Assembly (NCBI RefSeq): GCF_964355755.1
Contig: NC_092676.1
Coordinates: 4,007,888 to 4,071,887 of the forward strand
DNA: 64,000 nucleotides
Source: Antedon mediterranea
Lineage: Eukaryota; Animalia; Echinodermata
Direction of reading: 5' to 3'
Below are positions 27,741 to 64,000 of this stretch, piece by piece; position 1 is the first letter of the stretch, and every line of letters starts with the position of its first letter. The translations under genes and the position numbers were made by a program. The notes under the pieces were generated by a model that was not told the origin of the DNA, ran no database searches, and was given only the letters and a program-made list of their open reading frames with translations.

Positions 27741-28450
27741 TATATGCATATATGGCAATAGTATGGCATAATAATTGAATTTTAAATACAGTAGTCGATA
27801 TTTTGGCCTGTACTAGTACAGGAATTTTTTCAGAAAATGGCAAAATTTCGAACCCTTTTAGTTTTCGACAAAAGTGTGTATTATGGCTCTATAAGTTGTT
27901 GCAAATAAATTTTTTTTTTCTCTCTTTGGTTTGGTGTGTGCCTCTCTTCATATACATATACATAAGTAAATAAGGGTTAGTACACTACCAGTGTCTAACT
28001 AATACTCCTGATATATTCCCATTATATTCATTTTCTCATTTAGAATGTTCAATTCTTGCAAACATTCTTAAACAATTACGTTACCTTCAATTATTAGAAT
28101 ATTGTTATGTGTTATGATATGGACTTTGTTCTGAAATAAAAGTGAATTGATTTGAATTGCATTTAGCCTTTGTTCTAAAAAACCTTAGATAATAATCAAT
28201 AGTACAATAGTCAATTCACATTCATTACTGTTTATCTTAAATCTATATATGTAATTGCTTATTCGAACAAAACAATTAAATATTAATATCAACTACTAAC
28301 CAAAGTCATACACCTGGTGAACTGATTTATCTAAATTATTTAAAACTCTTTTGCAACAATACTAAAAGAAACAATATTATGTCAAACGTTGAGATGACTT
28401 TGGGAGATAAAGTTTACTACGCACATCACGGTACTGAATTGCGTAAGAAG

Positions 28451-28526
28451 ATGTTTGTCTTTAAAGTGGTAATAATATTGGTGGAGTTATCGTTTTCTAG
28501 TTGTGCTGATGTTGGTTCAAATTCTG
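28451..28526 (+). CDS. probable signal-peptide first exon of the SRCR-LRR gene (MFVFKVVIILVELSFSSCADVGSNS; upstream in-frame ATG at 28379)
   Basis: ATG + hydrophobic stretch + small-residue cleavage site, gtatga donor in phase 1 matching SRCR exon 46127; linkage across 17.6 kb is inferred. Confidence 0.5.
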
Positions 28527-34990: not shown

Positions 34991-35400
34991 TTCTCTTGCT
35001 ATTGTTGAATTTCGCGCCTCAGTGCTTCCGTGCTGGTCGCATCGGCTGCTTCAAGCACAGGGGGCGACTCCAGTGATTGTTGGCCTACGTCTGATGTTTT
35101 TTGGATTTCGCGCCTCCTGCTGGTCGCATCGGCTGCTTCAAGCACAGGGGGCGACTCCAGTGATTGTTGGCCTACGTCTGATGTTTTTTGGATTTCGCGC
35201 CTCAGTGCTTCCGTGCTGGGCGCCTCGGCTGCTTCAAGCACCGGGGGCGACTCCTGTGATTTTGCGCCTACGTCTGTTGGCTTTTTTTTTTCCCATTTTG
35301 AGTGCTTGATTTCTCTATTAAAGTCAGATTCAATTTGTTAAATGCACTTACAGTTTTTTTTACGGTTTATTTGTCCAACGTTGTATTAGTGTAGCATGTA

Positions 35401-36801: not shown

Positions 36802-37826
36802 TTATTTATATATTAGACGGAGCAAACTATCCACGTCTGTTCACTCACGTAGCATCTTATTACTTTTTAATATATAGTATTGGAACGAACTTCACATTTA
36901 AGACGATAATATTTGTTTTATCAAAAGATAAGGCTTCAATTTTAATTTCACATACAAATTGTTGATTACCTAAAATATTTTGTTTTAGTAAATTAAACCA
37001 ACATATGGTTCGAATGTTAGTAACAAGCGAATTTATAGGCGCAGAGGCTCCGCAAGTTCCGCATTCTCCGCGTTTGGAGTTGAAAATCGACTGACGCTTG
37101 TCACATTCGATTTCATGTTCCCTCTGATGATATTGTTTTTGGAATTTTACGTGTGTCACTTCGCGTGTAGATTGTTCAGTGCGTGCACAATACGTAGCAA
37201 TATGGAGCTTTGATTTGCAACGACCCAATTAGGTCAGGTCAATCGATGTGTCATCGATCGCCGCCTGGACCTACAAACCATTATAATGTGTGTAGAGGTG
37301 GAGAGCGGGGAAACACGTCCCAATTTCCCCGCATGGGTACAATGAATAAAATAACATCATTTCGTCGTCGGTCGTCGTATAGCTCCCTATACGCTCGCAA
37401 AGACAGAACTTTTAATATTACAAGAGAAACGGAGACAATGGCTACTATTATGAAGCTAATTTACATAATATTAAAGTTAAGGTAATACAATTAACATTTT
37501 CCTTTCCTTGACATAATTTCATTAAACATCCACATACAGTACAACTCTTCTTAACAACATTTTTTTCAATCTTCTATCAACTAAAAGTCGTAGTTAGTCA
37601 TGTCTCGGGTCACATTCTATGGTCACCGTACAGATAGGCTACTACATCAGTACTTCTATGACTGGATGACTAGTTGGTGAGAAGAACGCTAGTTGGTCAT
37701 ACCCAGTACCGTTTTGATTTTACGATCATTCGGGAAACCACCTCACGACGATACTATTATTAAAATATAACACTCTCTTTTCGTTAGAGTAATACAATTA
37801 ACATTTTCCTTTCCAAATTTCAACTT

Positions 37827-40800: not shown

Positions 40801-43800
40801 ATTATCACATACGATTGTTACGTAGCACTTTATAAGATTTGACTGGTTTTAATCGCCGGACATCACTTCCATTTTGTATGCGTATTATCACATACGATTG
40901 TTATGTCGCATTTTATAAGATTTGACTGGTTTTAATCGCCGGACATCACTTCCATTTTGTATGCGTATTATCACATACGATTGTTATGTCGCACTTTATA
41001 AGATTTGACTGGTTTTAATCGCCGGACATCACTTCCATTTTGTATGCGTATTATCACATACGATTGTTACGTCACACTTTATAAGATTTGACTGGTTTTA
41101 ATCGCCGGACATCACTTCCATTTTGTATGCGTATTATCACATACGATTGTTATGTCGCACTTTATAAGATTTGGCAGGTTTTGATAGGCGGACATCGCCT
41201 CCATTTTCGTTACATAGTATCACATACGATTGTTACGTATAGCACTTTATAAGATTAGGTAGGTTTTGATCGCCAGTCATCGCTTCCATTTCCGTTGCAT
41301 AGTATCACATACGATTGTTACGTAGCACTTTATAAGATTTGACTGATTTTAATCGCCGGACATCGCTTCCATTTTGTATGCGTATTACCACATACAATTG
41401 TTACGTCACACTTTATAAGATTAGGCTGGTTTTAATCGCCAGACGTCACTTCCATTTTGTATGCGTATTATCACATACGATTGTTACGTCACACTTTATA
41501 AGATTAGGCTGATTTTAATCGCCAGACGTCACTTCCATTTTGTATGCGTATTATCACATACGATTGTTACGTCACACTTTCTAAGATTAGGCTGGTTTTA
41601 ATCGACGGACATCGCTTATATATATAAACTTTATTTAGACACGAGACTGATGTGCAGTACAACTCGTTCAATCAATATTGATTGTTTTTACACAAGTTCG
41701 TGAAACTGTATTACAAAACAAAAAAAAATCAACACCATATAAATACAACAGAAACGAAAAAAATTGAAATTGAAAAGAAACAAAATTACAGCAGAATCCC
41801 CTTCATCTGACAACTCTATTTAGGGTACACCATACCGGTACTTCCCGTGTAAACGGAAACCCTTATCGAAGTGTAGAATTCATGGGGATTCAACTGTAAT
41901 ACATAATAAATCTTTTGGATTTCATTTACCTTAAAATAATAGTGATAAAACACACATTTTACATAGTATTTAGCCATTTTAAAAGTTGGATGTAGATCGT
42001 AGATTACCATACCATTATGTTTTAAAATGCATTTTTCAGATACGTTTTAAACAACTTCCATTTTGTATGCGTATTATCACATACGATTGTTACGTCGCAC
42101 TTTATAAGATTTGGCTGGTTTTGATCGCCGGACATCACTTCCATTTTGTATGCGTATTATCACATACGATTGTTACGTCACACTTTATAAGATTTGACTG
42201 GTTTTAATCGCCAGACATCGCTTCCATTTTGTATGCGTATTATCACATACGATTGTTACGTCACACTTTATAAGATTTGAATGGTTTTGATCGCCGGACA
42301 TCACTTCCATTTTGTATGCGTATTATCACATACGATTGCTACGTCGCACTTTATAAGATTTGAATGGTTTTGATCGCCGTACATAACTTCAATTTTGTAT
42401 GCGTATTATCACATACGATTGCTACGTCGCACTTTATAAGATTTGACTGGTTTTAATCGCCGGACATCGCTTCCATTTTCGTTGCATAGTATACATACGA
42501 TTGTTACGTCACACTTTATAAGATTTGACTGGTTTTGATAGGCGGACATCGCCTCCATTTTCGTTGCATAGTATCACATACGATTGTTACGTAGCACTTT
42601 ATCAGATTAGGTAGGTTTTAATCGCCAGTCATCGCTTCCATTTTCGTAGCATAGTATACATACGATTGTTACGTAGCACTTTATAAGATTTGACTGGTTT
42701 TAATCGCCGGACATCACTTCCATTTTGTATGCGTATTATCACATACGATTGTTATGTCGCACTTTATAAGATTTGACTGGTTATAATCGCCGGACATCAC
42801 TTCCATTTTGTATGCGTATTATCACATACGATTGTTACGTCACACTTTATAAGATTCGGCAGGTTTTGATCGGCGAACATCACTTCCATTTTCGTTGCAT
42901 AGTATCACATACGATTTTTACGTAGCACTTTATAAGATTCGGCAGGTTTTGATTGCCGGACATCACTTCCATTTTCGTTGCATAGTATCACATACGATTG
43001 TTACGTCACACTTTATAAGATTTGGCTGGGTTTGATCGTCGGACATCGCTTCCATTTTGTATGCGTATTATCACATACGACTGTTACGTCACGCTTTATA
43101 AGATTATCAAGGTTTTGATCGGCGGACATCGCTTCCATTTTCGTTGCATAGTATCACATACGATTGTTACGTCGCACTTTATAAGATTTGACTGGTTTTG
43201 ATTGCCGGACATCGCTTCCGTTTTCGTTGCATAGTATCACATACGATTGTTACATATAGCACTTTATAAGATTTGACTGGTTTTGATTGCCGGACATCGC
43301 TTCCATTTTCGTTGCATAGTATCACATACGATTGTTACGTAGCACTTTATCAGATTTGACTGGTTTTAATCGCCGGACATCGCTTCCATTTTCGTTGCAT
43401 AGTATCACATACGATTGTTACGTCACACTTTATAAGATTTGACTGGTTTTAATCGCCGGACATCACTTCCATTTTGTATGCGTATTATCACATACGATTG
43501 TTACGTAGCACTTTATAAGATTTGACTGGTTTTAATCGCCGGACATCACTTCCATTTTGTATGCGTATTATCACATACGATTGTTATGTCGCATTTTATA
43601 AGATTTGACTGGTTTTAATCGCCGGACATCACTTCCATTTTGTATGCGTATTATCACATACGATTGTTATGTCGCACTTTATAAGATTTGACTGGTTTTA
43701 ATCGCCGGACATCACTTCCATTTTGTATGCGTATTATCACATACGATTGTTACGTCACACTTTATAAGATTTGACTGGTTTTAATCGCCGGACATCACTT

Positions 43801-45829
43801 CCATTTTGTATGCGTATTATCACATACGATTGTTATGTCGCATTTTATAAGATTTGACTGGTTTTAATCGCCGGACATCACTTCCATTTTGTATGCGTAT
43901 TATCACATACGATTGTTACGTCACACTTTATAAGATTAGGCTGGTTTTAATCGCCGGACATCGCTTCCATTTTGTATGCGTATTACCACATACAATTGTT
44001 ACGTCACACTTTATAAGATTAGGCTGGTTTTAATCGCCAGACGTCACTTCCATTTTGTATGCGTATTATCACATACGATTGTTACGTCACACTTTATAAG
44101 ATTTGGCTGGTTTTGATCGCCGGACATCACTTCCATTTTGTATGCGTATTATCACATACGATTGTTACGTCACACTTTATAAGATTTGACTGGTTTTAAT
44201 CGCCGGACATCGCTTCCATTTTGTATGCGTATTATCACATACGATTGTTACGTCGCACTTTATAAGATTTGACTGGTTTTAATCGCCGGACATCGCTTAC
44301 ATTTTCGTTGCTTATTATTACTAACCCTTGATACGTCACACTTTGTAATGTTAGGCTGGTTTTGATCGCCGGACATCGCTTCCATTTTGTATGCGTATTA
44401 TCACATACGATTGTCTTTATAAGATTTGGCTGGTTCTGATCGCCGGACATCACTTCCATTTCCGTTGCATAGTATCACATACGATTGTTACGTAGCACTT
44501 TATAAGATTAGGTAGGTTTTAATCGCCGGACATCGCTTCCATTTTCGTTGCATAGTATACATACGATTGTTACGTCACACTTTATAAGATTTGGCAGGTT
44601 TTGATAGGCGGACATCGCCTCCATTTTCGTTACATAGTATCACATACGATTGTTACGTATAGCACTTTATAAGATTAGGTAGGTTTTGATCGCCAGTCAT
44701 CGCTTCCATTTCCGTTGCATAGTATCACATACGATTGTTACGTAGCACTTTATAAGATTTGACTGGTTTTAATCGCCGGACATCACTTCCATTTTGTATG
44801 CGTATTATCACATACGATTGTTACGTAGCACTTTATAAGATTTGACTGGTTTTAATCGCCGGACATCACTTCCATTTTGTATGCGTATTATCACATACGA
44901 TTGTTATGTCGCACTTTATAAGATCTGACTGGTTTTAATCGCCGGACATCACTTCCATTTTGTATGCGTATTATCACATACGATTGTTACGTCACATTTT
45001 ATAAGATTCGGTAGGTTTTAATCGGCGAACATCACTTCCATTTTCGTTGCATAGTATCACATACGATTGTTACGTCACACTTTATAAGATTTGGCTGGTT
45101 TTGATCGTCGGACATCGCTTCCATTTTGTATGCGTATTATCACATACGATTGTTAGGTCACACTTTATAAGATTTGACTGGTTTTGATCGCCGGACATCG
45201 CTTCCATTCTGTATTCATATGATCACATACGATTGTTTTTTTTTTTTTTTTTTTTATTCAGTATATTACACAGAGGCGCCTTACAAGATGGAACCATCTT
45301 AGCTTCAAGGCGCCTCAGATTAACAAATACAACATTTTAAAACAACTAACAGAAACATTAATTAAATCTTCCAGAATTAACAAGAAATTGTTGTACATAA
45401 TAAAATAATAAAGCATTTTCACAATTCGAAAGAAGATCGGAACCAAAAATAAAAATTTCACTTAAAAATGTAAAATTAAATGTTAAAGAAAAATCCTTGG
45501 CTAAGATATCCTCAATAATTGAGTTAGCGCTTACAAGTAGAATATCTCTTTGTGTATTATACATACATATATTACATACGATTGTTACGTCACACTTTAT
45601 AAGATTTTACTGGCTTTGATCGCCGGACATCCCTTACATTCTGTATTCATATGATCACATACGATTGTTACGTCACACTTTATAAGATTTTACTGGCTTT
45701 GATCGCCGGACATCCCTTACATTCTGTATGCATATGATCACATACGATTGTTACGTAACACTAAGATTCGGCAGGTTTTGATCTCTGCACATCACTTTCA
45801 TTTTCGTTGCATAGTATCACATACGATTA
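37827..45829. repeat. 83-bp satellite, roughly 80 monomers, with a 2683-bp-period internal duplication and three insertions
   Basis: unit GTATTATCACATACGATTGTTACGTCACACTTTATAAGATTTGACTGGTTTTAATCGCCGGACATCACTTCCATTTTGTATGC; identical ORFs at 39133/41816 and 39303/41986. Confidence 0.97.
45238..45573 (-). mobile_element. 5'-truncated LINE 3' end with poly(A) and target-site duplication
   Basis: poly-T on + strand, ORF end ...IFGSDLLSNCENALLFYYVQQFLVNSGRF, ACATACGATTGTT duplicated at 45225 and 45574. Confidence 0.8.
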
Positions 45830-46126
45830 CTGTTTTATCTAATTGTCGCATTTGATAATTTATAGATGATAAGCAGTAATTACTATAATTAAGTAATAAT
45901 AATTTAATTTTAGGCTTCAGTAAACATTTTCCGCAAACTATATATTTACTTATTTGTAGGGCAGAATATTATTACCCCTCACTTTAAGAATACCGTGAAA
46001 AAGTACTACTACTACTGCACCACTACCACCCCCACCACCACTACTACTAACATTCAGTAGGATTAATAGCAGTATACATTTAAATAAAGAAATGTTTTAA
46101 ACTATATTGTAATTGTTGTTATGCAG

Positions 46127-46432
46127 ACATTAGACTTGTGGATGGCAGCAATATTTATGAGGGACGAGTTGAAGTTTACGATGGCACAGAATGGGGTACA
46201 ATATGTGATGATGACTGGGACATCAACGACGCTCAGGTTGTATGTCGACAATTAAGACTAGGACCAGCTATCCAAGCTCCAATGCGAGCTCATTTTGGCC
46301 AAGGGACTGGTCCGATTATGCTTGATAATGTTCGGTGTTCAGGAAGTGAGACATTTATCACAGGCTGTCTTAATAGAGGAATGAGGGTACACGATTGTGG
46401 ACATTCTGAGGATGCTAGTGTTATTTGTGGAG
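46127..46432 (+). CDS. SRCR domain exon 1 (group A, 6 Cys)
   Basis: [38 protein letters not shown]; atgcag/gtaaaa; 306 nt. Confidence 0.95.
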
Positions 46433-49400
46433 GTAAAAAGGATTAACACAGAAAACAACAATACTCTAAGGCCAAGACACTTTTTTAACTAGGAAATGTC
46501 AATATGTTTATCTCAGTTTAAAAGGAAAATGTGTTTTTTTCATATTTTTGTTCATTGCCACCATTCAGACTTTGTGTCCTTTGTATCATTACTTTGTGAG
46601 TGGCCGAGCGGTTAAGACATTGGAACCGTAATTACGTAGCCATAACATCGGCAGGGGTTCGAGGCACACTCACTCCATGGTTGTGGTGGTAGAACGAGTC
46701 TTCTCGGATAAGGTCTATAAACCGTAGGTCCAGTGTACACATCTAGCTCGTGTGCACTTTAAATAACCTAGTACATCTTTCGAGACGAGTAGGGGGTTAC
46801 CCCGGTGTATTAGTACATCACAGCCACTGATCACCAACTGGGCCCTCTGGGAGACCAGTCTTTGACTGAAGAGGTTACCCAGTATAAATATATATTTCAA
46901 TCAATCAATCAATCAATCCACGTCTCAGTTATATTACTCATTAAATGTTAAAATAAAAACGTTAAGCAATTTCAAGTTGCTACTCATCTTATAAAATAAT
47001 GGGCAGTTTGTCAGAGTTGGAAAACAGAACCAATTTATTTTTTATTTAGTTGCAATCTCAAAATCATAATTTGTTTAAGAAATGTATTATCCATTTAAAC
47101 ATATTCATTCATCATTTAATTTTATATCTGTTTATTTCAGTTCATTCAATTTTTACAAAACAGTAGACATAAATGTAAAAAGGTAACAGAAAATAATAAA
47201 CTAATAATGAAGATAATGTTATTTTAGTGATGAAAGCTTAAAATGTTAAAAATATTTCTAAGGGCAGATATTATCTCATATTAAGATATACCTCATCATT
47301 TAAATATCCTTTTTATTGAACAGGTTTTAAATTTAGGAATAAACTGTTTAATAGCAGTAATTAATAATACTATATTAGGTACCCTTACAATGGACGGGCG
47401 CCATCTTATGATTATTTTAAGGTTCGGGAATCAAAAACATAGTACAGTAATATAATGTAATGTCCTGAGTTACTAGTGTGTCAGATTTACGTCAGCTGTT
47501 CAAATAGACTTAACGAGAGTATAGCTTCACAGTGAGAGATATATCAATATAAAGAAATGATTTTAACTTGTACATTTGTTTCATTTAGTAAACATTAGAC
47601 TTGTGAATGGCAGCAATATTTATGAGGGACGAGTTGAAGTTTACGATGGCACAGAATGGGGTACAATATGTGATAATAGCTGGGACATCAACGACGCTCA
47701 AGTTGTATGTCGACAATTAAGACTAGGACCAGCTATCCAAGCTCCAAGACAAGCTTATTTTGGTCAAGGGATTGGTCCGATTATGTTTGATAATGTTCAG
47801 TGTTCAGGAAATGAGACATCTATCACAGACTGTCCTAAAAGAGGAATGAGGGTACACTATTGTGGACATTCTGAGGATGCTAGTGTTGTTTGTGGTAAGT
47901 AAAATAGTAACTGTAGAAAAAGGATTAATAAATGCAGACAACAACAATACTGTAAGGCCAACACACTTTTTAAACTAGGAAATGTTAATATGTTTATCTC
48001 AGTTTAAAAGGAAAATGTCTTTTTTTTTCATATTTTTGTTCATTGCCACCATTCACACTTTGTATCCATGTCCCAATTATATTACTCATTAAATGTTAAA
48101 ATAAAAACGTTAAGCAATTTCAAGTTGCTTCTCATCTTATAAAATACTAGGCAGTTTGTCACAGTTGGAAAACAGAACCAGTTAATTTTTTATTTAGTTG
48201 CAATCTCAAAATCATAATTTGGTTAAGAAATTTATTATCCATTTACACATTTTCATTCATCATTTCATTTTATATCTGTTTATTTCAGTTCATTCAATTT
48301 TTACAAAACAGTAGACATAAATGTAAAAAGGTACCAGAAAATAATAAATAAACTAATAATGAAGATGGCATTATTTAGAGATGAAAGCTTAAAATACAAA
48401 AAATAGTATTTTTCTATGGGCAGATATTATCTCATATTAAGATATACCTCATCGTTTAATCATCCTCTATTGAACAGGTTTTAAATTTAGTTTTAAACTG
48501 TTTAATAGCAGTAATTAATAATACTATATTAGGTACCCTTACAATGGACGGGCGCCATCTTATGATTATTTTAAGGTTCGGGAATCAAAAAGATATTACA
48601 GTAATATAATGTAATGTCCTGAGATACTTGTGTCAGATTTACATTAGCTATTCAAATAGACTTAACGAGAGTATAGCTTCACAGTGAGAGATATATCAAT
48701 ATAAAGAACTGATTTTAACTTGTACATTTGTTTCATTTAGTAAACATTAGACTTGTGGATGGCAGCAATATCTTTGAGGGACGAGTTGAAGTTTACGATG
48801 GCACAGAATGGGGTACAATATGTGATAATGGCTGGGACATCAACGACGCTCAAGTTGTATGTCGACAATTAAGACTAGGACCAGCTATCCAAGCTCCAAG
48901 ACAAGCTTATTTTGGTCAAGGGACTGGTCCGATTATGCTTGATGATGTTCAGTGTTCAGGAACTGAGACATCCATCACAGACTGTCCTAATAGAGGAATG
49001 AGGGTACACGATTGTGGACATTATGAGGATGCCAGTGTTATTTGTCAAGGTAGGAAAATTTGACACTAAATACAAACTTCAGTACTAACAGACGGTATTA
49101 CAATACACTATTGACTAAGAGGGAGTGTTTTGTTTTATAAATTATATAAAAATAAGTTCTATTTTCAATAGTTTTACCCATTTAGAGAAAAAAGAGATTA
49201 AAGCTACATTTGGCGTCGTTTATTCTCCTTATATAATATTCCATTGTTTAACACGACGAAATGAACAATACCATTAAATTAAACAGTGTAATAATGAAGC
49301 TTAAATATAATATGTTTTTATTTCACCTGTATCGAATTATAAGAATTTATGTTCATGTTTAAATTACTCATTGTTATCACACCACCAGTCAGGGGTGGCG

Positions 49401-52400
49401 CCAGGATCTTCCCGACGCGGGGGCTACATTCCCCGACGAGGGGGCTATGCGAGCGAAGCGAGCATCACTAGGCTGGGGGACAGGGGGCCGCCAAGGGCCC
49501 CCGGTGGGGGTCCAGGGGGCGAAGCCTCCGGAAGCAACGCGTTCTAGCGTCATTTGAGGTCATTTTAATCAGATTTAGGGTAGCCATTTTTTTCCATTTT
49601 TTATAATGCATAAATAAAATACTAAAATACTGCGTGCAAAAAAACGATGCGCGATGACTGTTTCAATCTATATTTTTCAATTTAAAAAATAAAAGTTCAA
49701 AGAAAATTTAGAAAAATAGAGTTTTGGAGGTCCCGGAAATTGAACTTATTATACTTCAAAACATGAAACAAAATATATAAGTCCCTATAAAGGTTGTGAC
49801 TGAGCTAAGAAATGTTGAAAAATAGAGATGTTAGGTCCCGGAAAATGCACTTCCTTGTACTTCGAAATATGACCAGCTTTATTGTTGGGGCTGAGCTAAG
49901 AAACTGTTTAAAACTAGAGCTGCAGGTCTTCAAAAAATTGCATTTTATACTTCGGAAAAATCAGGCCTAGAGGCTTAAAAAAAGCAAGCGTAGACCTTTT
50001 TCAGTCGGGGAAATAAGTTTATTCCTCCCAAGTGTATGCGTGCGTACCATCTGGACTCCCGAGTGGTGAGAAATTCATGACATACAGGACATTGAAAATG
50101 TAATAACTTAGCTATAATAAGATGTTGGCTAAGCGAAAATGGCATGTTTTTTTGTTTAGTAATGGATGAAAAATGTTTTTTAGGTGCCCCACGGTACAGA
50201 AGGTTACTTGTAAAAAATTGGTGAACATACGAACAATTAACATAATTCGTTTTTGCTGTAGTGTAGCGTACGTCGACGCAGTACACGATGTAACCGTCAG
50301 TAAACTTCGCCTGGAAAATAACTACAGTACACATTTTGGTCCCTGGATGGAACATGATATCACGCGTCTCGACCCAACGTTGAACGATTCGTACAAAGGG
50401 ATACCGCCAGACAAGTGCGAACCTAGCTATTGTTTAGTAGTAAGTTAGATCGCTGGCAATAATGAATGCATATAAAGTGCATAATATCACTCTGACGTGC
50501 TCTCACGGTCAATGAAACGTCGCGGTTTTCTAGGCGCTGAAGCTAGCTACGAAGTGAACGCGAACGCTTTTTACTGTATATTATATTCCCCGACAAAAAG
50601 TACCCGTGTTCCCTTCGGTAACCGTCGGTAAACTTCGCCTAGAAAATAACTACATTACACATTTTGGTCCCTGGATGGAACTTGATATCACGCGTCTCGA
50701 CCCAACGTTGAACGATTCGTACTGAGGGATACCGCCAGACAAGTGCGTACCTAGCTAATGTTTAGTAGTAAGTTAGATCGCTGGCAATAAATGAATGCAT
50801 AAAAGTGCATAATAGCCCTCTGACGTACTCTCACGGTCAATGGAACGTCGTGGTTTTCTAGGCGCTGAAGCTATATGAAGTGAACGCGAACGTTTTTTAC
50901 TGTATATTATATTCCCCGACAAAAAGTACCCGTGTTCCCCGACGGGGGGGGGCTAGGCTCCCGACGAGGGGGTTAGAGCCCCCGTAGCCCCCCCGCTGGC
51001 GCCACCACTGCCACCAGTATTCATCATTATCGTAGTGTTCTACTATGTAAGATAGAAATAAAGTACTTGGTAATGCTGTTGTTTTACATGAATTACTGAA
51101 TTGTATTATTTACTGCTTGTGTTTTTTTTTAACAAAATCATTGTAGTCAGATGCCCAACATATTGCACCTGTAATGTCCAGACGTGTTACTTAGCAAGTT
51201 GTTATAATAACACTAGATGTACTCAATGGAATGCAAATATACATACAGAACTTGTTGACTACAATGTATATGATCCAATAACAAGATTGTAAGTAGAACT
51301 AAGTTTATGTCATACTGTGAGCAAAATAAACAATTTATATTTCTTTGATAATATAGGTCCATGCTATTTATACAGCAGAATCATGATAATATTGAACAGA
51401 TGGGGAGTGGGTGGATTTTGTTAATGTGGAACTACTGGTCTTGTGGCGGTCTACAGTATATTTAGGTCGTTTCAATCAGTTTACGGGCTCATCAGTAATC
51501 TGGTCATTTTCCGTATACGACATTTTACGTAAGAATGTGATAGTAGACTAAAAATAACATTTTTTATTTTAACATAGTATATTGTGACATCACTAAAGTA
51601 CATACAATAGAGTACATGCAGTATAACTACTGTATAATGTACAGGAAATGTAGAAATTTCAACATTTGAGGTGACAGAAAAACTAAAATAATTTAAAAAC
51701 AGCTTGGATATTGTGATTTACTTACACTGTGCATTCTTTGGGATTTGACCTATAACCAAATTAAGTACATGTTGGTTAAACAATGATAATGGTTTAATAT
51801 TATATTGATTTCACAATTTGTGATCTTATAAAAATAACTTTAAAAATCAAGTTTTTTGTTCATCCACCATGTAATGAACTTTATTTTTTTTATATATAAT
51901 AATTCAAAATCAATTTTTATTGTAAATATCACAATATAAATATAATTATATTTATATATATCATCATAACAAATGTTACTAAATAATTAAAATTTGTTTA
52001 TGTATTAATTTTGTCTTATGAGAAAAAATGTTTCAAAATATAAATATATATTTTATATTTTGACATTAAAATGTTTATGCAATACAGTGAATGCATTGTA
52101 GGATCAATTGTAATATTGGACTAATATGCTATACATTATGACTATTTACAGTAAAAAGAATTTTAAAATAAACATTTTTTAAATGTATCCACCATGATTG
52201 AACTATTTATTTTGGTAAGATCTAACAATTGAAACTAAATCTGTATTACATATAGATAATACATTTATTATATGGTTGCTAACGAACAATTTGAAATTGG
52301 TGTAGAAATTTTGTTTTAATAAAATAAGTTATCAAAATAAATTTACCACATTTTTATTTTAACATAGTATATTTTGACATCACTAAAGTACATACAATAT

Positions 52401-55400
52401 AGTACATGCAATATAACTACTGTATAATGTAGCCTACAGGAATGTAGACATTTCAACATTTGAGGTGACAGAAAAACTAAAATAATTTAAAAACAGCTTG
52501 GATATTGTGATTTACTTATACTGTGCATTCTTTTTACTTTTAAGGTCTTTGTACGATAACCAAATAAGTACATTGCAAGCCAATGCATTTGCTGGTTTGA
52601 CAGCATTGGAAACACTGTAAGTGTATTGCTTATGTTTGCTAACTTTTATCAGTTTGGTTTTAATCTAGAAATTAAATTACAAATTATTTTGAATTGTTGA
52701 TTAAGCAATTATAATGGATTAATATTATTACATAATTGCACAATTTGTGATCGTATAAAAAATATCTTTATAAATCACAAGTTTTTAGTTCATCCACCAT
52801 GAATGAACTTTATTTTTGTGTAATACATAATAATTCTGAATTAATCTTAAATGTAAAATTTCACAATATAAATATCATTATAATGATTGTTATACTAATT
52901 AATTAGTATTTGTTTATGTAGTGATTTTGTTTTATGATAATAAAAATTATTAAAATATAAATATATATTTTATATTTTGACATCATTAAAATATTGATAC
53001 AATACAGTGCATGTATTGTAGGATCAATTGTAATAATGGACTAATAATATTTACCTTATGATTTCATGATTATTCACAGTAAAACAAATTTAAAAAGCAA
53101 CAATTTTGTAATTTATCCACCATGATTGAATTATTTATTTTTGTAATATATAACAATTGAAACTGAATTTACATTACATATTAGATAATACATTTATTAT
53201 ATGGTTGCTATCAAACAATTTGAATTTGTTGACATTTTGTTTTAAGAAAATATGTTATTCAAATAAATTTACCATATTTGTATTTTAACATAGTATATTT
53301 TGACATCACTAAAGTACATACAATAGAGTACATGCAGTATAACTACTGTATAATGCACAGGAATGTAGACATTTCAACATTTGAGGTGACAAGAAAAACT
53401 AAAATAATTTAAAAACAGCTTCGATATTGTGATTTACTTATACTGTGCATTCTTTTTACTTTTAAGGGATTTGGGCAGTAACCAAATAAGTACATTACAA
53501 GCCAATGCATTTGCTGGTTTGACAGCATTGGAAACACTGTAAGTGTATTGCTTATGTTTGCTTACAGTTACTAATTTGGTTTTATATTATAAATTAAATT
53601 ATAAATTATTTTATATTGTTGGTTAAACAATGAAAATGGATTAATATTATTCTATAATTTCACAATTTGTGACCTTATAAAAAATATCTTTATAAATCAC
53701 TAGTTTTTACTTCATCCACCATGAATGAACTTTATTTTTGTGTAATACATAATAATTTTAAAAATAATATTAATTGTAAAATTTCACAATATAAATATCA
53801 TTATAATGATTGTTATACTAAATAATTAGTATTTGTTTATGTAGTGATTTTGTTTTATGATAATACAAATTATTAAAATATAAATATATATTTTATATTT
53901 TGACATCATTAAAATGTTGATACAATACAATGCATGTATTGTAGGATCAATTGTAATAATGGACTAATAATATGTATCAACATTTTTAAAATGTATCCAC
54001 CATGATTGAACTATTTATTTTTGTAAGATATAACAAAACTGAATCTGTATTACATATTAGATAATACATTAATTATATGGTTGTTAACAAACAATTTGAA
54101 TTTGTTGTAGACATTTTATTTTTAATAAAATAAGTTATTAAAATATATATACATTTTTACTTTAACATAGTATATTTTGACATCACTAAAGTACATACAA
54201 TATAGTACATGCAATATAACTACTGTATAATGTACAGGAATGTAGACATTTCAACATTTGAGGTGACAGAAAAACTAAAATAATTTAAAAACAGCTTGGA
54301 TATTGTGATTTACTTATAATGTGCATTCTTTTTACTTTTAAGGAATTTGTACAGTAACCAAATAAGTACATTACAAGCCAATGCATTTGCTGGTTTGACA
54401 GCATTGAAAACACTGTAAGTGTATTGCTTATGTTTGCTTACTTTTACCAATTTGGTTTTAATTTAGAAATTAACAAACTTTATTTTTTTGAATAATATTA
54501 TAATAATTCAAAATACATTTTTATTGTAACTGTCACAATATAAATATTATTATAACAAATGTTACTAAATAATTAGTATTTGTTTATTTAGTGATTTTGT
54601 TTTATGAGAATAAAAATTATTGAAATATAAATATATATTTTATATTTTGACATTAAAATATTGATACAATACAGTGCATGTATTGTAGGTTTGATTGTAA
54701 TAAGGGAGTAATAATATGTACTTTATGATTTCATGATTATTTATAGTAAAAATAATTTTAAAGTGAACATATTAAAAATGTATTCACCATGATTGAACTA
54801 TTTATTTTTGTAAGATATAACAATTGAACTGAATCTGTATTACATATAGATAATACATTTATTATGGTTGCTATCAAACAATTTTTAATTTGTTGTAGAC
54901 ATTTTATTTTAATAAAATAAGTTATTAAAATATACATTTTTACTTTAACATAGTATATTTTGACATCACTAAAGTACATACAATAGAGTACATGCAGTAT
55001 AACTACTGTATAATGTACAGGAATGTAGACATTTCAACATTTGAGGTGACAGAAAAATTAAAATAATTTTAAAACAGCTTGGATATTGTGATTTACTTAT
55101 ACTGTGCATTCTTTTTACTTTTAAGGGATTTGAGGGGTAACCAAATAAGTACATTACCAGCCAATGCATTTGCTGGTTTGACAGCATTGAAAACACTGTA
55201 AGTGTATTGCTTATGTTTGCTAACTTTTAACAATTTGGTTTTAATTTCGAAATTAAATGAAAAATTATTTTACAAAGTTGGTTAAACAATGATAATGGAT
55301 TAATATTATTATATAATTTCACAATTTGTGATCTTATAAAAAATAACTTAAAAAATCAGTAGTTTTTTGCTCATCCACCATGAACAAATTTTAATTTTTT

Positions 55401-58400
55401 AAATATTATATAATAATTCAAAATAAATTTTTATTGTAAATGTCACAATAAAAATATCATTATAACAAATAATACTAAAACTAAATAATTAGTATTTGTT
55501 TATGTAGTGATTTTGTTTTATGAGAATAACAATTATTAAAATAGGAATATATTTTATATTTTAACATTAAAATATTGATACAATACAATGCATGCATTGT
55601 AGGATCAATTGTAATAATGGACTAATCATATGTACCTTATGATTTCATGATTATTTACAGTAAAAAGAATTTTAAAGTCAACATTATTTTTATTTGTAAT
55701 TTATCCACCATGATTGAAGTATATATTTTTGTAAGATATAACAATTGAAAGTGAATCTGTATTTAATACATAATAGATAATACATTTATTATATGGTTGC
55801 TATCAAACAATTACATTTGGTGAAGACATTTTATTTTAAGAAATTAAGTTATTAAATTATATTTACCACATTTTTATAAAACTGACAAAATGTTTCTAAG
55901 TAGGCCTAATCAATATTTGTTTATGTACATTTTTGTTTATTTTAACAAAATAAGTTATTAAAATATACATTTGTATTTTAACATAGTATATTTTGACATA
56001 ACTAAAGTACATACAATAGAGTACATGCAGTATAACTACCGGTACTGTATAATGTACAGGAATGTAGACATTTCAACATTTGAGGTGACAGAAAAACTAA
56101 AATAATTTAAAAACAGCTTGGATATTGTGATTTACTTATACTGTGCATTCTTTTTACTTTTAAGGAATTTGAGATGGAACCGAATAAGTACATTACAAGC
56201 CAATGCATTTGCTGGTTTGACAGCATTGGAAAAACTGTAAGTGTATTGCTTATGTTTGCTACTTTTACAATTTGGTTTTAATCTAGAAATTAAATTACAA
56301 ATTATTTTGAATTGTTGATTAAGCAATTATAATGGATTAATATTATTACATAATTTCACAATTTGTGATTGTATAAAAAAATATCTTTATAAATCACTAG
56401 TTTTTAGTTCATCCACCATGAATGAACTTTATTTTTGTGTACATAATAATTCTGAATTAATCTTAAATGTAAAATTTCACGATGTAAATATCATTATAAT
56501 GATTGTTATGCTAAATAATTATTATTTGTTTATGTAGTGATTTTGTTTTATGAGAATAAAAATTATTAAAATATAAATATATATTTTATATTTTGACATT
56601 AAAATGTTGATACAACACAATGCATCCATTGTAGGATCAATTGTAATAATGGAGTAATATGTACTTTATGATTTTCTATAATTTCACAATTTGTGATCTT
56701 ATAAAAAAACTTTAAAAATCAATAGTTTTTTGCTCGTCCAACATTAACAAACTTTATTTTTTTGAATAATATTATAATAATTCAAAATACATTTTTATTG
56801 TAACTGTCACAATATAAATATTATTATAACAAATGTTACTAAATAATTAGTATTTGTTTATTTAGTGATTTTGTTTTATGATAATAAAAATTAATAAAAT
56901 AAAAATATATATTTTGACATTAAATATTGATACAATACAGTGCATGTATTATAGGATCAATTGTAATAATGGACTAATAATATGTACTTTATGATTTCAT
57001 GATTATTTACAGTAAAACCAATTTTAAAATCAACATTTTTAAAATGTATCCACCATGATTGAACTATTTATTTTTGTAAGATCTAACAATTGAAACTGAA
57101 TCTGAATTACATATAGATAATACATTTATTATATGGTTGCTATCAAACAATTTGAATTTGTTGACATTTTGTTTTCAGAAAATATGTTAATCAAATAAAT
57201 TTACAACATTTTTATTTTAACATAGTATATTTTGACATAACTAAAGTACATACAATAGAGTACATGCAGTATAACTACTGTATAATGTACAGGAATGTAG
57301 ACATTTCAACATTTGAGGTGACAGAAAAACTAAAATAATTTTAAAACAGCTTGGATATATTGTGATTTACTTATATTTATTACCAGCCAATGCATTTGCT
57401 GGTTTGACAGCATTGAAAACACTGTAAGTGTATTGCTTATGTTTGCTTACTTTTATCAATTTGGTTTTAATTTAGAAATTAAATGAAAAATTATTTTACA
57501 TTGTTGGTTAAACAATGATAATGGATTAATATTATTTATAAAATTTCACAATTTGTGATCTTGTAAAAACAAACTTAAAAAATCAATAGTTTTTTGCTCA
57601 TCCAACATGAATGAACTTTTTATAATATATAATATTTCAAAATGATTTTTTATTGTAAATGTCACAATATAAATATATTTTTGTAAATCAACAATTTCAG
57701 CCGTCGGGCTGCATGTTTTTTATTATATAAACCTGAATAAATAAATAAATAAATTATTACAATTGATCCTACAATACATGCACTGTATTGTATAAACATT
57801 TTAATGTCAAAATATAAAATATGTAATCACTACATAACAAATACTAATTATTTAGTATAACAATCATTATAATGATATTTATTGTGAAATTTTACAATTA
57901 ATATTATTTTTAATTATTATGTATTACAGAAAAATAAATTTCATTCATGTTGGATGAATTAAAAACTAGTGATTTATAAATTTATTTTTTATAAGATCAC
58001 AAATTGTAAAATTATGTAAATTATGTAATAATATTAATCCATTATCATTATACAGTTGTTGTACTGCATGTACTCTATTGTATGTACTAGTGATGTCACA
58101 ATATGATATGGGTAAATAAAAATGTATATTTTAATAACTTATTTTATCAAAATAAAATGTCTACAAAAAATTAAAATGTTTTGATAGCAACCATATAATA
58201 AATGTATTATCTATATGTAATACAGATTCGGTTTCAATTGCTATGTCATGGTGGATAAATTTAAAAATTGTTGATTTTAAAATTAGTTTTACTGTAAATA
58301 ATCATGAAATCATAAGGTACATATTATTAGTCCATTATTACAATTGATCCTACAATGCATTCACTGTATTGTATAAACATTTTAATGTCAAAATATAAAA

Positions 58401-61400
58401 TATATATTTATATTTTAATAATTTTTATTCTCATAAAAAAAATCACTACATAAACAAAATACTAATTATTTAGTAACATTTGTTATAATGGTATATATAT
58501 ATATATGGAAACACAAATATTTAAAAAAATACCAAAATTTATACAAAATATAAAAAAATTTGAAAAATTCAGTTAAAAAAATAAAATTATGTTAAAAAAA
58601 TTACAAAATTTATATACAAATGCATAGGCCTATATATGTAAATATTTATAACATAGCCATCTTCAGCGTGATCAGTTTAGGTACTGTTTAAATTAAGGAT
58701 TCTACTTATAGTAAGGGCAGGCGAGGTCTTAAGACGGTTAGTTCTACAAACAGGTATATTAATTAGGGGTTTATGGACTAATATGTACTTTATGATTCCA
58801 TGATAATTATTTACAGTAATTTTGTTTTAAGAAAATAAGAAATAAGTTATGAAAATATATTTACAAAAGTATATTTTGACATACTAAAGTATACAATAGA
58901 TGGATTACATGCAGTATAGTGTATTTACTGTACTACAATTTAGTTTTAATTAAAAAGGTAAATTAGAAATTGTATTTTACATTGTAGAACAATTATAACA
59001 AAATATTTAATATATAATTTCATTATTATGTGATTATAAGTTTAAACCCCACCTCACCAAAAAAAACCACAAACAACTGGTTTTTCGTATATGATAATAT
59101 AGGCCTAATAAATCAAATATCAATTTTCAGTTGTTATTTTACAATATAAATATCATTTAAAATATCATTTAAGTTAATTTTACTACATTTAGTATTTGTT
59201 TACTTTAACCAGAAAACAAACAAAAATAAAAGGGATAAATGCAGTGTTTATATTACCGTAAATCAATAGATAATTGGCAACTAACTTAATTAACTGCTAA
59301 AGCCCAAACTAGCAAGACCATAATGTGCATTATTTATCATATACTGTGTATTTTTTATCATTTAAGGTGGTTCATGAATGGTAACCAAATACACACATTG
59401 GAAGCCTATGCATTTGCCGGTTTGGAATCATTGACAGAACTGTGAGTATTTTTTCAATACTTGTACAAACTTCCTTATTTTTAAAAGAAACTTTATTTAT
59501 TGTTGTTTTAGAACTATTCTAATTACTAGATGGTACGCTTGCTTCGCTCGCGTACCATCTAGGTCGTGCCCACAGATGGTTCTCGAATACATAATAATTT
59601 CAGCGTTAAAAAACTGGCGATTTCAAATGTACGTACCGCAGGACAATAATGTCGTTTACAGGAACGGATAAATAGACACTGTGATTTATGTACTAAACTA
59701 AAATTAGCACCCTGGGATTTACTTCCGAAAGAGAAACTTGTCACAAAATGAGACCAATTGTTTAAGTCAAATTTAAACAAACTTAATTTGTGTTTTATAT
59801 GTAACATTAGGGTTGAGGGATGGAAGAGGAACAATTTTTAAATATATTCTTTATCCATTTAGTAACGAAATATTAATTGTTTTCATGTTTTACAAATAAT
59901 GTACCACTAAACCATGGAGGTATTTATACCCCCATGACTAAACACAAGTAAAACATTGCGATGTAATACTTTGTTGAAACTATCACCGTCCTAGTCGATT
60001 GAAAAGTACAGTACGTATAACGATACATCACTACGACGTGTATATGTTTATATAATGTAAAACAATTTGTGAAAACCACCTCTATTCGGGGCAAATCATA
60101 AATTCGATTTAATCGTCAATAAATATTAAATTATCTAACTCAACTTAATTAGTAGGCCTAATGGTTTTCAATTGTTTCTTAGAGCTAATTCATACTTAAG
60201 TTGGTTCCTACCCTACCCACCAAAGTTGTTCTGCGTTTAGGGCATGTGATGCACTGTAGGCCTATCCTCTACTAAACATTCTAGAAATAACGCGCTATTT
60301 ACCGAATTTTGCCCTTACGTAAATTTATATATAGATTCCAGTTGATACTGTATGTCATACTGCCCTAATATTGCTGTAACACCGGTGCCAATCAATTTAC
60401 ATCTAACAACATGAATTATATTATTGTTTATATACATGAAAATTTTATTCAAAGATCTCTTTTGTCAATACATTTTTTATTAATGAAAATTTACAATCAT
60501 ACAGTATCAAAACAACTTGGATGTATATGATTTTAATTACTATGAATCATTTTATTTTGAAGACGTTTGAATGGTCACAAAATCAGTACATTGCCAGCTA
60601 ATGCATTTAATGGTTTGACAGCATTGACAACACTGTAAGTGTTTTATTTAGTTCATAATACTTTTATAATTATTTTTTTTAATTATACATTTTAAAATAA
60701 AATTTAATGAGAAAAAAGATAGATGCTGTTAATTTTACTCATTTGTTCTTTAGAATGGTTCCGAAACGTTGATCTTTTTTTGTCATTACATTTTATTTTA
60801 AAGTTATGTAGTAAACGTCTCTTAATTTGTAATTATGAATTCCTTTTTAAATTATAGTTAAATGTAAATCATGCAATTTTCTAAATGCAAATTTTAATGT
60901 AATGGTCCTATAGAGTAATTGTTTCACTTCATTTAATAATTAATATTTGATTAAAACTCCGAACAATGGGTCTTGATGTCCCCTTAAGGAGGTCCAGTAA
61001 TATCATTTTCAGTATTTCTATCAAAATTATATTTACTGTCAAAAAGTATTTAGGTAACCGGTTACGGGATTATAAATACATGAAAAACCCCTTATTGTCA
61101 AAAATTGTCTGTGTGCCTATGGTACAGTAATATACGTTTATACAAATGTATTGATTTGCAATGAATGGAACATTCCAAATTATTTGGTTTAACCATACTT
61201 GCATACCTCTATGGTTTAACACAAGTAGGTAAATTGATAGACCCTTGGAGAATAAACAGAAATAGTACTGTAATGCTATACAATACTGCAAATAGGTATT
61301 AACCACTTTTGATCGCCATTTGAATCAAAAGTGTGTTGTACTGTTAGATATAATATAAACAAATATACTAATAAACTTTATCACTTATTATAAACACATA

Positions 61401-62491
61401 ATAATATAATACTTTATTACTGTCAGTTGTTTCTCAACGTTTGTATTAATTAATAATTACAAAAATATAAACGTATTAGTGGTCTTTAAATGTACTTTAC
61501 TATTTCAATCGACCATGAGACAGTGACAGTTTATAAAGTATTAAATCGGAAATGTTTTACTCTAATTAGTGGTATATTATTTATAGTATTAAGTAATGAA
61601 GGAAGAAAGTTTGTGGAAACAAACATATTGAATTTGAATTTAAATAATAGGTGTTTAAGACTATCTTCTGTTAGTTGAGGAACATAGATTTAAGTATTTT
61701 TAAAAATTGTATTTATTTTGTTAATGCAAATTTTTAGAATTGTTAATTATACAAAAAAAATTGTTTTTTTTTCCTGTCCTCTTTTGGAAGTCTGTTTAAT
61801 AAAAGGCCAAGTAATTAAATAGAAAAGACACACAAAGACTTTTGGGCGAGTGTCCGTTATGAGAGTTGTCCATTTACGAATGGTGTCCACACAGGGAGTT
61901 TTGGACCATTACTTAGGAAAGATAAAGCATCAAACTTTACAGTTTATTCTTTATTCTTTGTAGAAGGTTGGACGATAACCAAATAAGGAAATTGCCAGCA
62001 AATGCATTTAATGGTTTGACAGCATTAAAAAAACTGTGAGTGTATCTCAAATTTATCCCAATTCATTAATTTACGTTTTAGAATAATGACAGATTCATAT
62101 TATTTAGTTTATCATTTCATAATGTGATCTTGTAACAAACAATTAATGAGAGGCAATGATCACCCAAGATCCATGAAATAACACCTTTGTACCAATAGGG
62201 TTACATGCTCTAGCATAATTTTAAAGGAAAAAAATTCACAAGAAAAGTTTAAGACTAATTAGCCGTGGATGGAAGAAGAAATATAATCAGAAAAATAAAG
62301 GGGTAAACACAGTGTTTATATACGGTAAGGTGTAGAAATCAATAGATAATTCACAACTAACTTAACTGCTCAAGCGTAAGCTAGCAAGACTATATACTAT
62401 GCATTATTTATTATTTAAGGCGAATGAATGGTAACCAAATACACACATTGGAAGCCTATGCATTTTCTGGTTTGGAATCATTGACAGAACT
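46127..62491 (+). CDS. multi-exon SRCR(x3)-LRRNT-LRR(x9+) extracellular protein/receptor; continues beyond the window
   Basis: three phase 1-1 SRCR exons, a phase 1-2 Cys-rich cap exon, then phase 2-2 72/75-nt LRR exons all joining in frame; no stop or transmembrane exon seen before 64000. Confidence 0.88.
46580..46916 (+). mobile_element. tRNA-derived SINE
   Basis: A box TGGCCGAGCGG, B box GGTTCGAGGC, (TCAA)n tail; absent from the paralogous intron at ~48066. Confidence 0.85.
47589..47894 (+). CDS. SRCR domain exon 2
   Basis: atttag/gtaagt; 306 nt, phase 1-1. Confidence 0.95.
48741..49049 (+). CDS. SRCR domain exon 3
   Basis: atttag/gtagga; 309 nt, phase 1-1. Confidence 0.95.
49390..51010. 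mobile_element. non-autonomous hAT element
   Basis: TIRs CAGGGGTGGCGCCAG / CTGGCGCCACCACTG, 8-bp TSD CCACCAGT (49382-89, 51011-18), internal ~328-bp tandem duplication 50290-50940. Confidence 0.88.
51147..51288 (+). CDS. LRR N-terminal cap exon ([14 protein letters not shown]...DPITRL)
   Basis: CPxxCxC motif; ttgtag/gtaagt; phase 1 to 2 bridges SRCR and LRR exons. Confidence 0.85.
51740..51770 (+). pseudogene. disabled LRR exon (DLTYNQI.. remnant)
   Basis: same upstream intron block as intact units but acceptor AG deleted and 3' half plus donor deleted. Confidence 0.8.
52545..52616 (+). CDS. LRR exon ([24 protein letters not shown])
   Basis: 72 nt, taag/gtaagt, phase 2-2. Confidence 0.93.
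53467..53538 (+). CDS. LRR exon ([24 protein letters not shown])
   Basis: 72 nt, taag/gtaagt, phase 2-2. Confidence 0.93.
54343..54414 (+). CDS. LRR exon ([24 protein letters not shown])
   Basis: 72 nt, taag/gtaagt, phase 2-2. Confidence 0.93.
55126..55197 (+). CDS. LRR exon ([24 protein letters not shown])
   Basis: 72 nt, taag/gtaagt, phase 2-2. Confidence 0.93.
56165..56236 (+). CDS. LRR exon ([24 protein letters not shown])
   Basis: 72 nt, taag/gtaagt, phase 2-2. Confidence 0.93.
57379..57423 (+). pseudogene. disabled LRR exon (..[15 protein letters not shown] remnant)
   Basis: acceptor and variable 5' part deleted; 3' part and gtaagt donor retained. Confidence 0.85.
57757..58492 (-). 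repeat. inverted, exon-less segment of the LRR intron repeat unit
   Basis: reverse complement of the ~0.8-1.0 kb unit (e.g. ATTACAATTGATCCTACAAT twice); exon and flanks deleted at ~58050. Confidence 0.85.
59367..59441 (+). CDS. LRR exon, 75 nt ([25 protein letters not shown])
   Basis: taag/gtgagt, phase 2-2, one extra codon. Confidence 0.88.
59526..60335 (-). mobile_element. non-autonomous Helitron H1, internally deleted copy
   Basis: reverse complement of 29033-30477 with both termini; empty site AAATTA|TTCCAGTT at ~62579. Confidence 0.9.
60563..60634 (+). CDS. LRR exon ([24 protein letters not shown])
   Basis: 72 nt, gaag/gtaagt, phase 2-2. Confidence 0.88.
61964..62035 (+). CDS. LRR exon ([24 protein letters not shown])
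   Basis: 72 nt, ttgtag/gtgagt, phase 2-2. Confidence 0.9.
62420..62491 (+). CDS. LRR exon ([24 protein letters not shown])
   Basis: 72 nt, taag/gtgagt, phase 2-2; duplicate of 59367 exon. Confidence 0.9.
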
Positions 62492-63918
62492 GTGAGTATT
62501 TTTTCAATACTTCACTTTACCAACTTTCTAATTTCAAAAGAAATTGATTATTGTTTAGAACCATTATAATGTCAAATTATTCCAGTTAATACTGAATGTC
62601 ATATAGACTGCCCTAACAAACATTGAGTAAACAGTGTCAGTCAATGGAATTACAATGAACAACATGAATTATATTGTGATCCTTTTGATTCCAAGATATT
62701 TTTTGTCACAAAAAAAGAAATAATGACATTTTACCATAATACTGTATCAAACAACTACTATATATATATATATATATGATGTATATATTATATGATTTTC
62801 CTTAGTATGAATTATTTTATGTTGTAGTCAGTTAAGAAAATAATATCATAAAGTAGTTAAGTGTACTGTAGATTTGAATCCAATTTGTTTGCTAAATATA
62901 AACGAAATATTTAACAAAGACACTAAGTTAGGGAAGGGCCGGACATATTGATAACCTTTGTAAAAATACAAAGAAAACAAATAGGTGTTTTATATAAACT
63001 AAGATATTTGGTTTCTTTTAAAATAAATATTAATTTTAATATATAACTTCTTTATTTTACCGTTATTATTTATGGTATAGAAGTCTGGGGAAACACTCAT
63101 ATAATGTTACATTTTCTGATTTCATTTTATATAATTGTTTAAACAACTTAATATTATAGATGTTTAAAAGTTATGTTATATGTTTTGTGTTTTAATTATT
63201 ATCATTTGTATTTATTATTTATATGCTATATTCATTTAATAACTATATCGGCGTCTATTAAAAAATTATTTATGTGTTACATTTCGAAGGCCAAATCTCG
63301 CCAACCGAAAGCTTTTTATTTAGTCGTTTTGTCAAATAAGTAAATCATGTAATTATTATTATTTTACATTTTGTAAAAAAAGTCAAAAAGACTATGCATT
63401 ATATTAAATAAAATAAACAGAAGGGCGTGAAAGATTACTGCAATTTTTGACTAAAAATCATGATCCTAATACATTAAAAGTTTTAATTTCTTTTGTGAGT
63501 TGTTGAAGCTTCCATAACATGAACAAGTGTTCGTTGCTATAGGTGTTTAGACAATCTCCTGTTAGTTGAGCAACATAGATTTAAGTAGTTTTAAAAACTG
63601 TATTCATTGTGATAATGCAAGTTTTTAGAAGTTAATAATACAACAAAAAATGTTTTTTTCCTGTCCTCTCTTGAAAGTCTGTTTCAATTATTAAATAATA
63701 AATTATTTTACATTGTTGGTTAAGCAATGACAATGGATTAATCACAATTTGTGGCTTATAAAAGATAATTTTTAAAAATCACAGTTTTTAGTTCATCTAT
63801 CATGAATGAACTTAATTTTTTTTTTAATTATTCCAAATCATTTATCCCCAAGTCAATTACAGTTTTCAACAACACCATTACTAGATACTTTGGTTCTGTT
63901 TAAGTAAATTGTTGTGTA

Positions 63919-64000
63919 CTAGATGGTACGCTCGCTTCGCTCGCGTACCATCTAGGTCGTGCCCACAGATGGTTCTCGAATACATAATAATTTCAGCATT
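63919..64000 (-). mobile_element. Helitron H1 3' end (third copy, cut by window end)
   Basis: CTAGATGGTACGCTCGCTTCGCTCGCGTACCATCTAGGTCGTGCCCACAG. Confidence 0.88.

Follow-up and report, generated by a model that had tools for sequence, protein, structure and literature searches.

Single-LRR exons in tandem, variable at concave-face codons, in a predicted SRCR-LRR gene of the crinoid Antedon mediterranea

Shuffling, positively selected exons that each encode one leucine-rich repeat (LRR) were known before from brown algae, and tandem arrays of LRR exons from ciliates. In the brown-algal (Ectocarpus) ROCO and LRR-kinase genes, one 24-residue LRR is encoded per 72-nt phase-2 exon, inactivated exons lie among live ones, units recombine with one another, and positions on the repeat's concave face are under positive selection (PMC3341825, PMC11378527). 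The Tetrahymena LRR genes with 90-bp exons are built of tandem exon+intron units with phase-2 introns, and unequal crossing-over has been proposed for them (PMC6564038). At variable lymphocyte receptor (VLR) loci, hundreds of cassettes flank a gene that is itself incomplete (PMC3308329). We analysed 64,000 nucleotides of the crinoid Antedon mediterranea (GCF_964355755.1, contig NC_092676.1, positions 4,007,888 to 4,071,887 of the forward strand), a stretch hereafter called the window, which contains a tandem array of one-LRR exons. Our best explanation, which we hold to be probable, is that exon+intron units were duplicated in the germline, that selection diversifies the codons of the concave face, and that conversion homogenises the rest, within one predicted extracellular SRCR-LRR recognition gene.

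The preliminary description of this DNA, made from its letters alone, had reported five intact 72-nt phase-2/2 exons in tandem exon+intron units, together with one dead copy, and had proposed exon duplication. All five exons are present, flanked by AG and GTAAGT and free of stop codons; their codons 1-4 are identical to those listed there, and the introns separating the intact exons are 711-967 nt long. The dead copy is real. A second one, D6, is an addition to the earlier account, and broken copies thus stand at both ends of the array. Exon duplication is thereby supported.

52545..52616, plus strand: young LRR exon E1
53467..53538, plus strand: young LRR exon E2
54343..54414, plus strand: young LRR exon E3
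55126..55197, plus strand: young LRR exon E4
56165..56236, plus strand: young LRR exon E5
51741..51770, plus strand: dead LRR copy D0, which retains its 5' half, lacks the 3' half and part of the acceptor, and carries one extra base
57379..57423, plus strand: dead LRR copy D6, nearest to E4, which retains its 3' half and has lost both the acceptor and the variable codons

An assembly or sequencing error is excluded by the 9-14% intron divergence between units and by the variable bases being in frame and stop-free. E2 matches Pfam LRR_8 at E 2e-4, under the curated cut-off, and a PDB sequence search with this single exon placed LGR4, LRRTM2, VLRA, Slit and TLR chains among the best 60 of 103 matches. 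An LRR exon with its in-frame intron flank as query yielded six candidates, none significant; Atlas returned generic LRR clusters only, and the exon framework had no exact match in metagenome contigs.

Variation among the exons was compared with x positions of LxxLxLxxNx that had been set beforehand from the LRR consensus, namely codons 22, 23, 1, 3, 4 and 6 (18 nt). Thirteen of the 72 columns are variable, 11 of them within the 18 nt of the x codons and two in the remaining 54 nt (Fisher p 6.6e-7), which bears out the earlier observation that it is the x positions of the LRR beta-strand to which variation is restricted. The accompanying statement, that the exons are hypervariable only at the face codons, was right about a synonymous TTG/TTA change in the framework; a nonsynonymous Gln/Pro difference at codon 11 of E4 makes its "only" slightly too strong. 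Codon 23 varies in one exon only. The mean pairwise difference among the five young exons is 35% (63/180) at the x codons versus 1.6% (8/510) in the framework. It amounts to 2.9% (56/1948) in the 200 nt upstream and 0% (0/240) in the 24 nt after the donor. Further out it rises to 9.3% in the distal part of the upstream intron and to 14.4% in the downstream intron.

Nonsynonymous difference (pN) is 0.42 at the x codons versus a synonymous difference (pS) of 0.043 across the exon. The x codons require a minimum of 15 changes per 18 nt, where 1.2 would be expected at the proximal intron rate (P 4e-12) and 5.0 at the distal upstream intron rate (P 2.4e-4). With our own implementation of the codon models on a star tree, M2a fits the five young exons better than M1a (2dL 29.1, p 5e-7; posterior 1.0 for codons 1, 3 and 4), and also the nine intact LRR exons of the locus with the extra codon of E6 omitted (2dL 26.7; here codons 1 and 3 have posterior 1.0). 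The positive selection that had been postulated is supported by the pairwise and pN-pS contrasts and by M2a versus M1a, and is of borderline significance when the fastest stretch of intron serves as reference; for codons 1, 3 and 4 we regard it as likely, not proven. The brown-algal selected sites are 15, 17, 19 and 20 (PMC3341825), which in our mapping on the printed consensus correspond to codons 23, 1, 3 and 4. Codons 1, 3 and 4 thus appear to be selected in the crinoid too, and the fourth, codon 23, weakly. The brown-algal type II exon also begins at the same point of the repeat as the exons described here.

All units share a block of ~300 nt in which they resemble one another much more closely than in the remaining intron. 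An inverted copy of the unit intron, which lacks the exon, provides an outside comparison.

53267..53562, plus strand: near-identical ~300-nt block, example around E2 (~200 nt of intron, the exon and 24 nt)
57753..58505, minus strand: unit intron copied in inverted orientation, split into three pieces and lacking both the exon and the flanks of the splice sites; located in the intron that follows E5

Over the first part of the block, divergence is 2.4% (42/1748) between units and 8.8% (40/455) between the units and the inverted copy, whereas outside the block the values are 8.2% and 8.4%; the values involving the inverted copy do not come from mutually independent comparisons. Because the units differ by 2.4% among themselves but by 8.8% from the inverted copy there, the block is not merely slow-mutating. 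The 18 informative sites form 153 pairs, of which 80 are incompatible, and the units therefore cannot be placed on any one tree. E1 and E5 differ at 10 of 18 nt in the x codons but at 4 of 174 downstream. A divergence peak within converted sequence has been described as a signature of selection in duplicated genes (PMC3924837), and the block together with the incompatible sites fits conversion between units with a narrow, putatively selected divergence peak. A diverged copy of the upstream block without a neighbouring exon was seen by eye at 58840-58940.

The units with their in-frame phase, the two terminal broken copies, the 300-nt block and a 12-nt variable island can be read directly from the DNA, and the following course is proposed for them. 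Unequal crossing-over in the germline would add or remove whole units, and conversion between units would even out the ~300-nt block. Diversifying selection at codons 1, 3 and 4 would counteract this homogenisation, such that the 12-nt island stays different. One rung of the concave sheet would come from each exon, and altered unit number, unit order or variable codons would create a new binding surface while leaving the fold unchanged. The broken end copies, and the differing SRCR count among A. mediterranea sequences given below, are in keeping with germline unequal crossing-over through which units are gained and lost.

Judged by phase and reading frame, the array is the middle part of a longer gene that the preliminary description overlooked. 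From 5' to 3' this gene comprises a signal-type exon, three SRCR exons, a Cys-rich cap exon and nine intact LRR exons. All 14 exons are phase-compatible, form one continuous frame and have intact GT-AG sites, and we infer that they are joined in one transcript. Eight of the nine intact LRR exons measure 72 nt and one measures 75 nt; all are phase 2/2.

28394..28526, plus strand: first coding exon, signal-peptide-like hydrophobic stretch (by eye), phase-1 donor
46127..46432, plus strand: SRCR exon 1, phase 1/1, Pfam PF00530 E 1e-30
47589..47894, plus strand: SRCR exon 2, phase 1/1, Pfam PF00530 E 2e-32
48741..49049, plus strand: SRCR exon 3, phase 1/1, Pfam PF00530 E 4e-33
51147..51288, plus strand: Cys-rich exon, phase 1 to phase 2, AG/GTAAGT, open frame, connecting the SRCR phase to the LRR phase
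59367..59441, plus strand: older LRR exon E6, 75 nt, one extra codon at the variable 5' end
60563..60634, plus strand: older LRR exon E7, flank ~78% like the young units
61964..62035, plus strand: older LRR exon E8
62420..62491, plus strand: older LRR exon E9, duplicate of E6

The first coding exon is identical at 42 of 44 residues to the N-terminus of the A. mediterranea protein XP_071956195 (P0081), and SRCR exon 3 has 94% identity with two proteins of this species, P0012 and P0081. A full-length SRCR domain is recognized in each of the three exons (106-114 bits versus a Pfam cut-off of 26.1). The number of these domains differs, with three exons here, seven domains in P0012 and six domain starts in the other A. 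mediterranea model. One of the models ends in 19 residues that are identical to read-through into the intron after SRCR exon 1 of the window, and its end therefore looks like an annotation artefact. The three SRCR exons (46127-49049) are themselves recent tandem units of 1.2-1.5 kb each. Used as a control for the LRR exons, they give pN of 0.05-0.08 and pS of 0.04-0.08, with changes scattered along the domain and without an LRR-like island; pN close to pS suggests relaxed or diversifying evolution of the SRCR units.

The Cys-rich exon is likely an N-terminal LRR cap, as its position and cysteines indicate. It has no Pfam match, no candidate in a word-indexed protein search and no usable match in Atlas, and its seven HMMER matches were dismissed as spurious, being short stretches of repeat-rich, prokaryote-type proteins (two named bacterial). 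Among the older LRR exons, the duplicates E6 and E9 (59290-62560) are 86% identical over 170 nt and differ at 3 of 18 nt in the x codons and at 2 of 51 in the framework. The final 1.5 kb of the window, after E9, yielded no additional exon, and the 3' end of the gene lies outside the window.

By analogy, the brown-algal (Ectocarpus) ROCO and LRR-kinase exon arrays are the closest system, and the crinoid array would work alike at the DNA level. The brown-algal ROCO and Tetrahymena LRR arrays, neither of which had been named in the preliminary description, are better models than the VLRs. Unlike the brown-algal arrays, the one described here was seen as a single locus, in an animal gene whose product is predicted to be extracellular and carries a signal-type exon and SRCR domains, which argue against an intracellular ROCO-type protein. 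The window, which stops short of the gene's 3' end, contains no ROC-COR or kinase, and no whole exon lies on the opposite strand. No counterpart of the homogenised 300-nt block or of the inverted intron copy was found in the accessible sections of the brown-algal accounts. The Tetrahymena arrays differ in having 30-residue repeats, thousands of genes and a link to retrotransposons, and positive selection is unmentioned in the accessible sections of their description (PMC6564038).

The resemblance to the 24-residue LRRV modules of VLRs that had been pointed out is genuine. The repeat fits the LRRV consensus XLXXLXXLXLXXNXLXXLPXXXFX (PMC4731796), and it shares with VLRs an invariant framework and variation on the concave face (PMC3308329, PMC4731796), the variable positions corresponding in our own mapping to positions 6, 7, 9, 11, 12 and 14 of that consensus. 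However, VLRs are assembled somatically, and their coding part is intron-less and contains no other domain (PMC3308329, PMC4731796), whereas here spliced exons lie behind SRCR domains. A VLR-type system is not supported: the exons are ordinary spliced ones in a continuous frame with SRCR domains, the intact young copies number five, and no orphan LRR cassette was found outside the array within the 64-kb window. In place of an incomplete germline gene, the exons are spliced, phase-compatible and bounded by GT-AG; in place of LRRs alone, three SRCR exons stand in frame upstream, presumably in the same transcript. As far as can be judged from its DNA, the locus is VLR-like at the protein level, yet not a VLR. 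If the units served immune cells as donor cassettes for copying into an expressed locus, as in true VLR-like assembly, the fit to the LRRV consensus with matching variable positions (PMC4731796) would be explained. Yet the intact splice sites in one frame, the location of nine intact and two broken modules all on one strand without an orphan cassette, and the build of real VLR loci (PMC3308329) make such assembly exceedingly improbable. The product is likely a recognition protein, whose diversity would arise in the germline and not, as in lamprey antibodies, through assembly in immune cells.

Several observations weigh against germline duplication with selection and conversion as the explanation of this locus, and some of them favour rivals. 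Purifying selection on an intronic element would likewise account for the block. The exchange or conversion between units that had been put forward is favoured by the incompatible site pairs, but these sites are unclustered (clustering test for recombination p 0.23), and conversion is for this reason not proven. The x codons might also have diverged without positive selection, drifting as fast as the fastest intron, with purifying selection preserving the framework and the upstream 200 nt. At the downstream (fastest) intron rate, 9.9 changes are expected against the minimum of 15 (0.55 versus 0.83 minimum changes per column, P 0.08), and one of 145 downstream intron windows of 18 columns attains the x-codon score. 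Codons 1, 3 and 4 alone exceed this rate at P 0.005, yet the choice of these codons was post hoc. The codon test itself compares five short recombining sequences on a star tree, and conversion and multi-base changes inflate it. Nevertheless, drift at this rate seems quite improbable to us: pairwise difference is 35% at the x codons but 14% in the downstream intron, whose rate is probably inflated by poor alignment of gapped AT-rich sequence; no window of 137 in the distal upstream intron, where P is 2.4e-4 as given above, attains the x-codon score; neutrality is rejected by the codon model; and one synonymous change is found in 12 framework sites where 6.6 are expected at the downstream intron rate (P 0.01; P 0.15 at the slower rate). 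With respect to the protein, that the SRCR and LRR parts share a transcript is something we infer, and the protein class is not fixed by the window, since the 3' end of the gene lies beyond it. The two A. mediterranea models homologous to the SRCR part lack an LRR motif, and among the 120 SRCR matches listed of 925 (DMBT1-like proteins), none has at least two LRR motifs.

A recognition-receptor role, proposed earlier, is likely and is strengthened by the SRCR domains; from the combination of SRCR and LRR, we lean slightly towards a fast-changing microbial or parasite molecule as the ligand. The protein could instead be a non-immune receptor, such as an LGR/GRL101-type G protein-coupled receptor or a gamete or adhesion receptor, with a face diversified for other reasons and the same DNA mechanism. 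Gonadotropin receptors likewise encode the LRRs of an animal extracellular domain one to each phase-2 exon (PMC11378527), LGR4 chains top the PDB matches of the one exon searched (best 60 of 103), and SRCR is partnered with LRR_1 and 7tm_1 in a domain-combination table (PMC2575513, supplement 3), in which the SRCR-LRR_1 pair occupies two rows of garbled columns, sea urchin being the likely row. However, those PDB matches, with VLR, Slit and TLR chains among them, are generic for the LRR class, and the window, which ends 1.5 kb past the last LRR exon, showed no exon for a 7TM, membrane or C-cap part. The LRR arrays of LGR and gonadotropin receptors are old and fixed, whereas the array here is recent, turning over and hypervariable, and a randomised binding face is not expected of a receptor for a fixed hormone. 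We consider a non-immune receptor rather unlikely. A further possibility, compatible with our best explanation, is combinatorial splicing within one animal by means of the inverted copy. This copy has 78-96% identity with pieces of the array introns, and might pair with the intron before any young exon, looping out that exon and the later ones and yielding, in the manner of a docking site, isoforms with 0 to 5 young repeats. The young exons are all symmetric with identical splice flanks, and the inverted copy does not cover the ~110 nt ahead of each acceptor or the ~100 nt that follow each donor. Its predicted duplexes with the units reach -311 to -475 kcal/mol in all six units tested, whereas shuffles give ~-100 (five each). 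Tandem arrays commonly give inversions as by-products, and any inverted copy pairs strongly, so the energy is uninformative on use. The inverted copy has also diverged like neutral intron (8-9%), and the upstream block folds weakly, with a hairpin not clearly beyond shuffles (z -0.9 to -2.0 in five of five units). Splice variants are reported for brown-algal one-exon-per-LRR genes, for which the accessible sections of PMC11378527 do not report somatic recombination, and for a crab LRR gene (PMC10045472). Dscam and crab VLR2 likewise have tandem duplicated exons selectable by splicing (crab: PMC10045472). Nothing here points to mutually exclusive use of exons, and alternative splicing at this locus would be conjectural. 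In Dscam, exon choice is guided by RNA pairing. Overall, combinatorial splicing through the inverted copy is unlikely. More doubtful still is a full RNA-level LRR repertoire in the crinoid, in which interchangeable exons, conversion of 300-nt cassettes and an inverted copy acting as docking arm would combine to loop out nested exon sets.

Other elements of the window lie in and around the gene. A 1.6-kb insertion at 49390-51010, situated in the intron that separates SRCR exon 3 from the cap exon, has imperfect terminal inverted repeats, an exact 8-bp target-site duplication and an internal 325-bp tandem duplication, and we take it to be a non-autonomous hAT-type element. The first intron (28527-46126) is 17.6 kb long. 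Fragments on the minus strand at 30971-35050 resemble what we presume to be LINE reverse transcriptase, endonuclease and L1-type ORF1, and an 83-bp satellite extends over ~8 kb at 37827-45828. A repeat element at 59525-60273 recurs with 93% identity in the opposite orientation at 29744-30478, the two copies lying in two introns of the same gene, and the start of this element is found again at 63918-64000. Exon-like open frames at 1331-5662 resemble the clathrin adaptor PICALM/AP180, with no convincing Pfam match for four frames. A 90-bp tandem repeat at 10574-11743 comprises 13 copies with 99% identity, and one of its frames is open for 299 codons.

No description of a crinoid SRCR-LRR exon array or of this gene was found in literature titles and abstracts, a search outside which subscription papers and bioRxiv supplements fell, and the accessible sections of PMC2246102 and PMC10199209 contain nothing on such a design. 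Crinoid immune receptors are little described in the literature searched. What is new here is that the design known from brown algae, with the same strand positions, occurs in a predicted extracellular SRCR-LRR gene of a crinoid. If an RNA-level repertoire did exist, one animal would make receptors varying in length and specificity, and an invertebrate deuterostome would obtain a VLR-like protein repertoire by Dscam-like means. Because the locus is small, a few long DNA and RNA reads from several animals could separate germline turnover, splicing choice and somatic change. Under our preferred explanation of germline duplication, selection and conversion, deuterostomes would be able to evolve variable modules of VLR shape with no somatic assembly, a point of relevance to the origin of the lamprey system.

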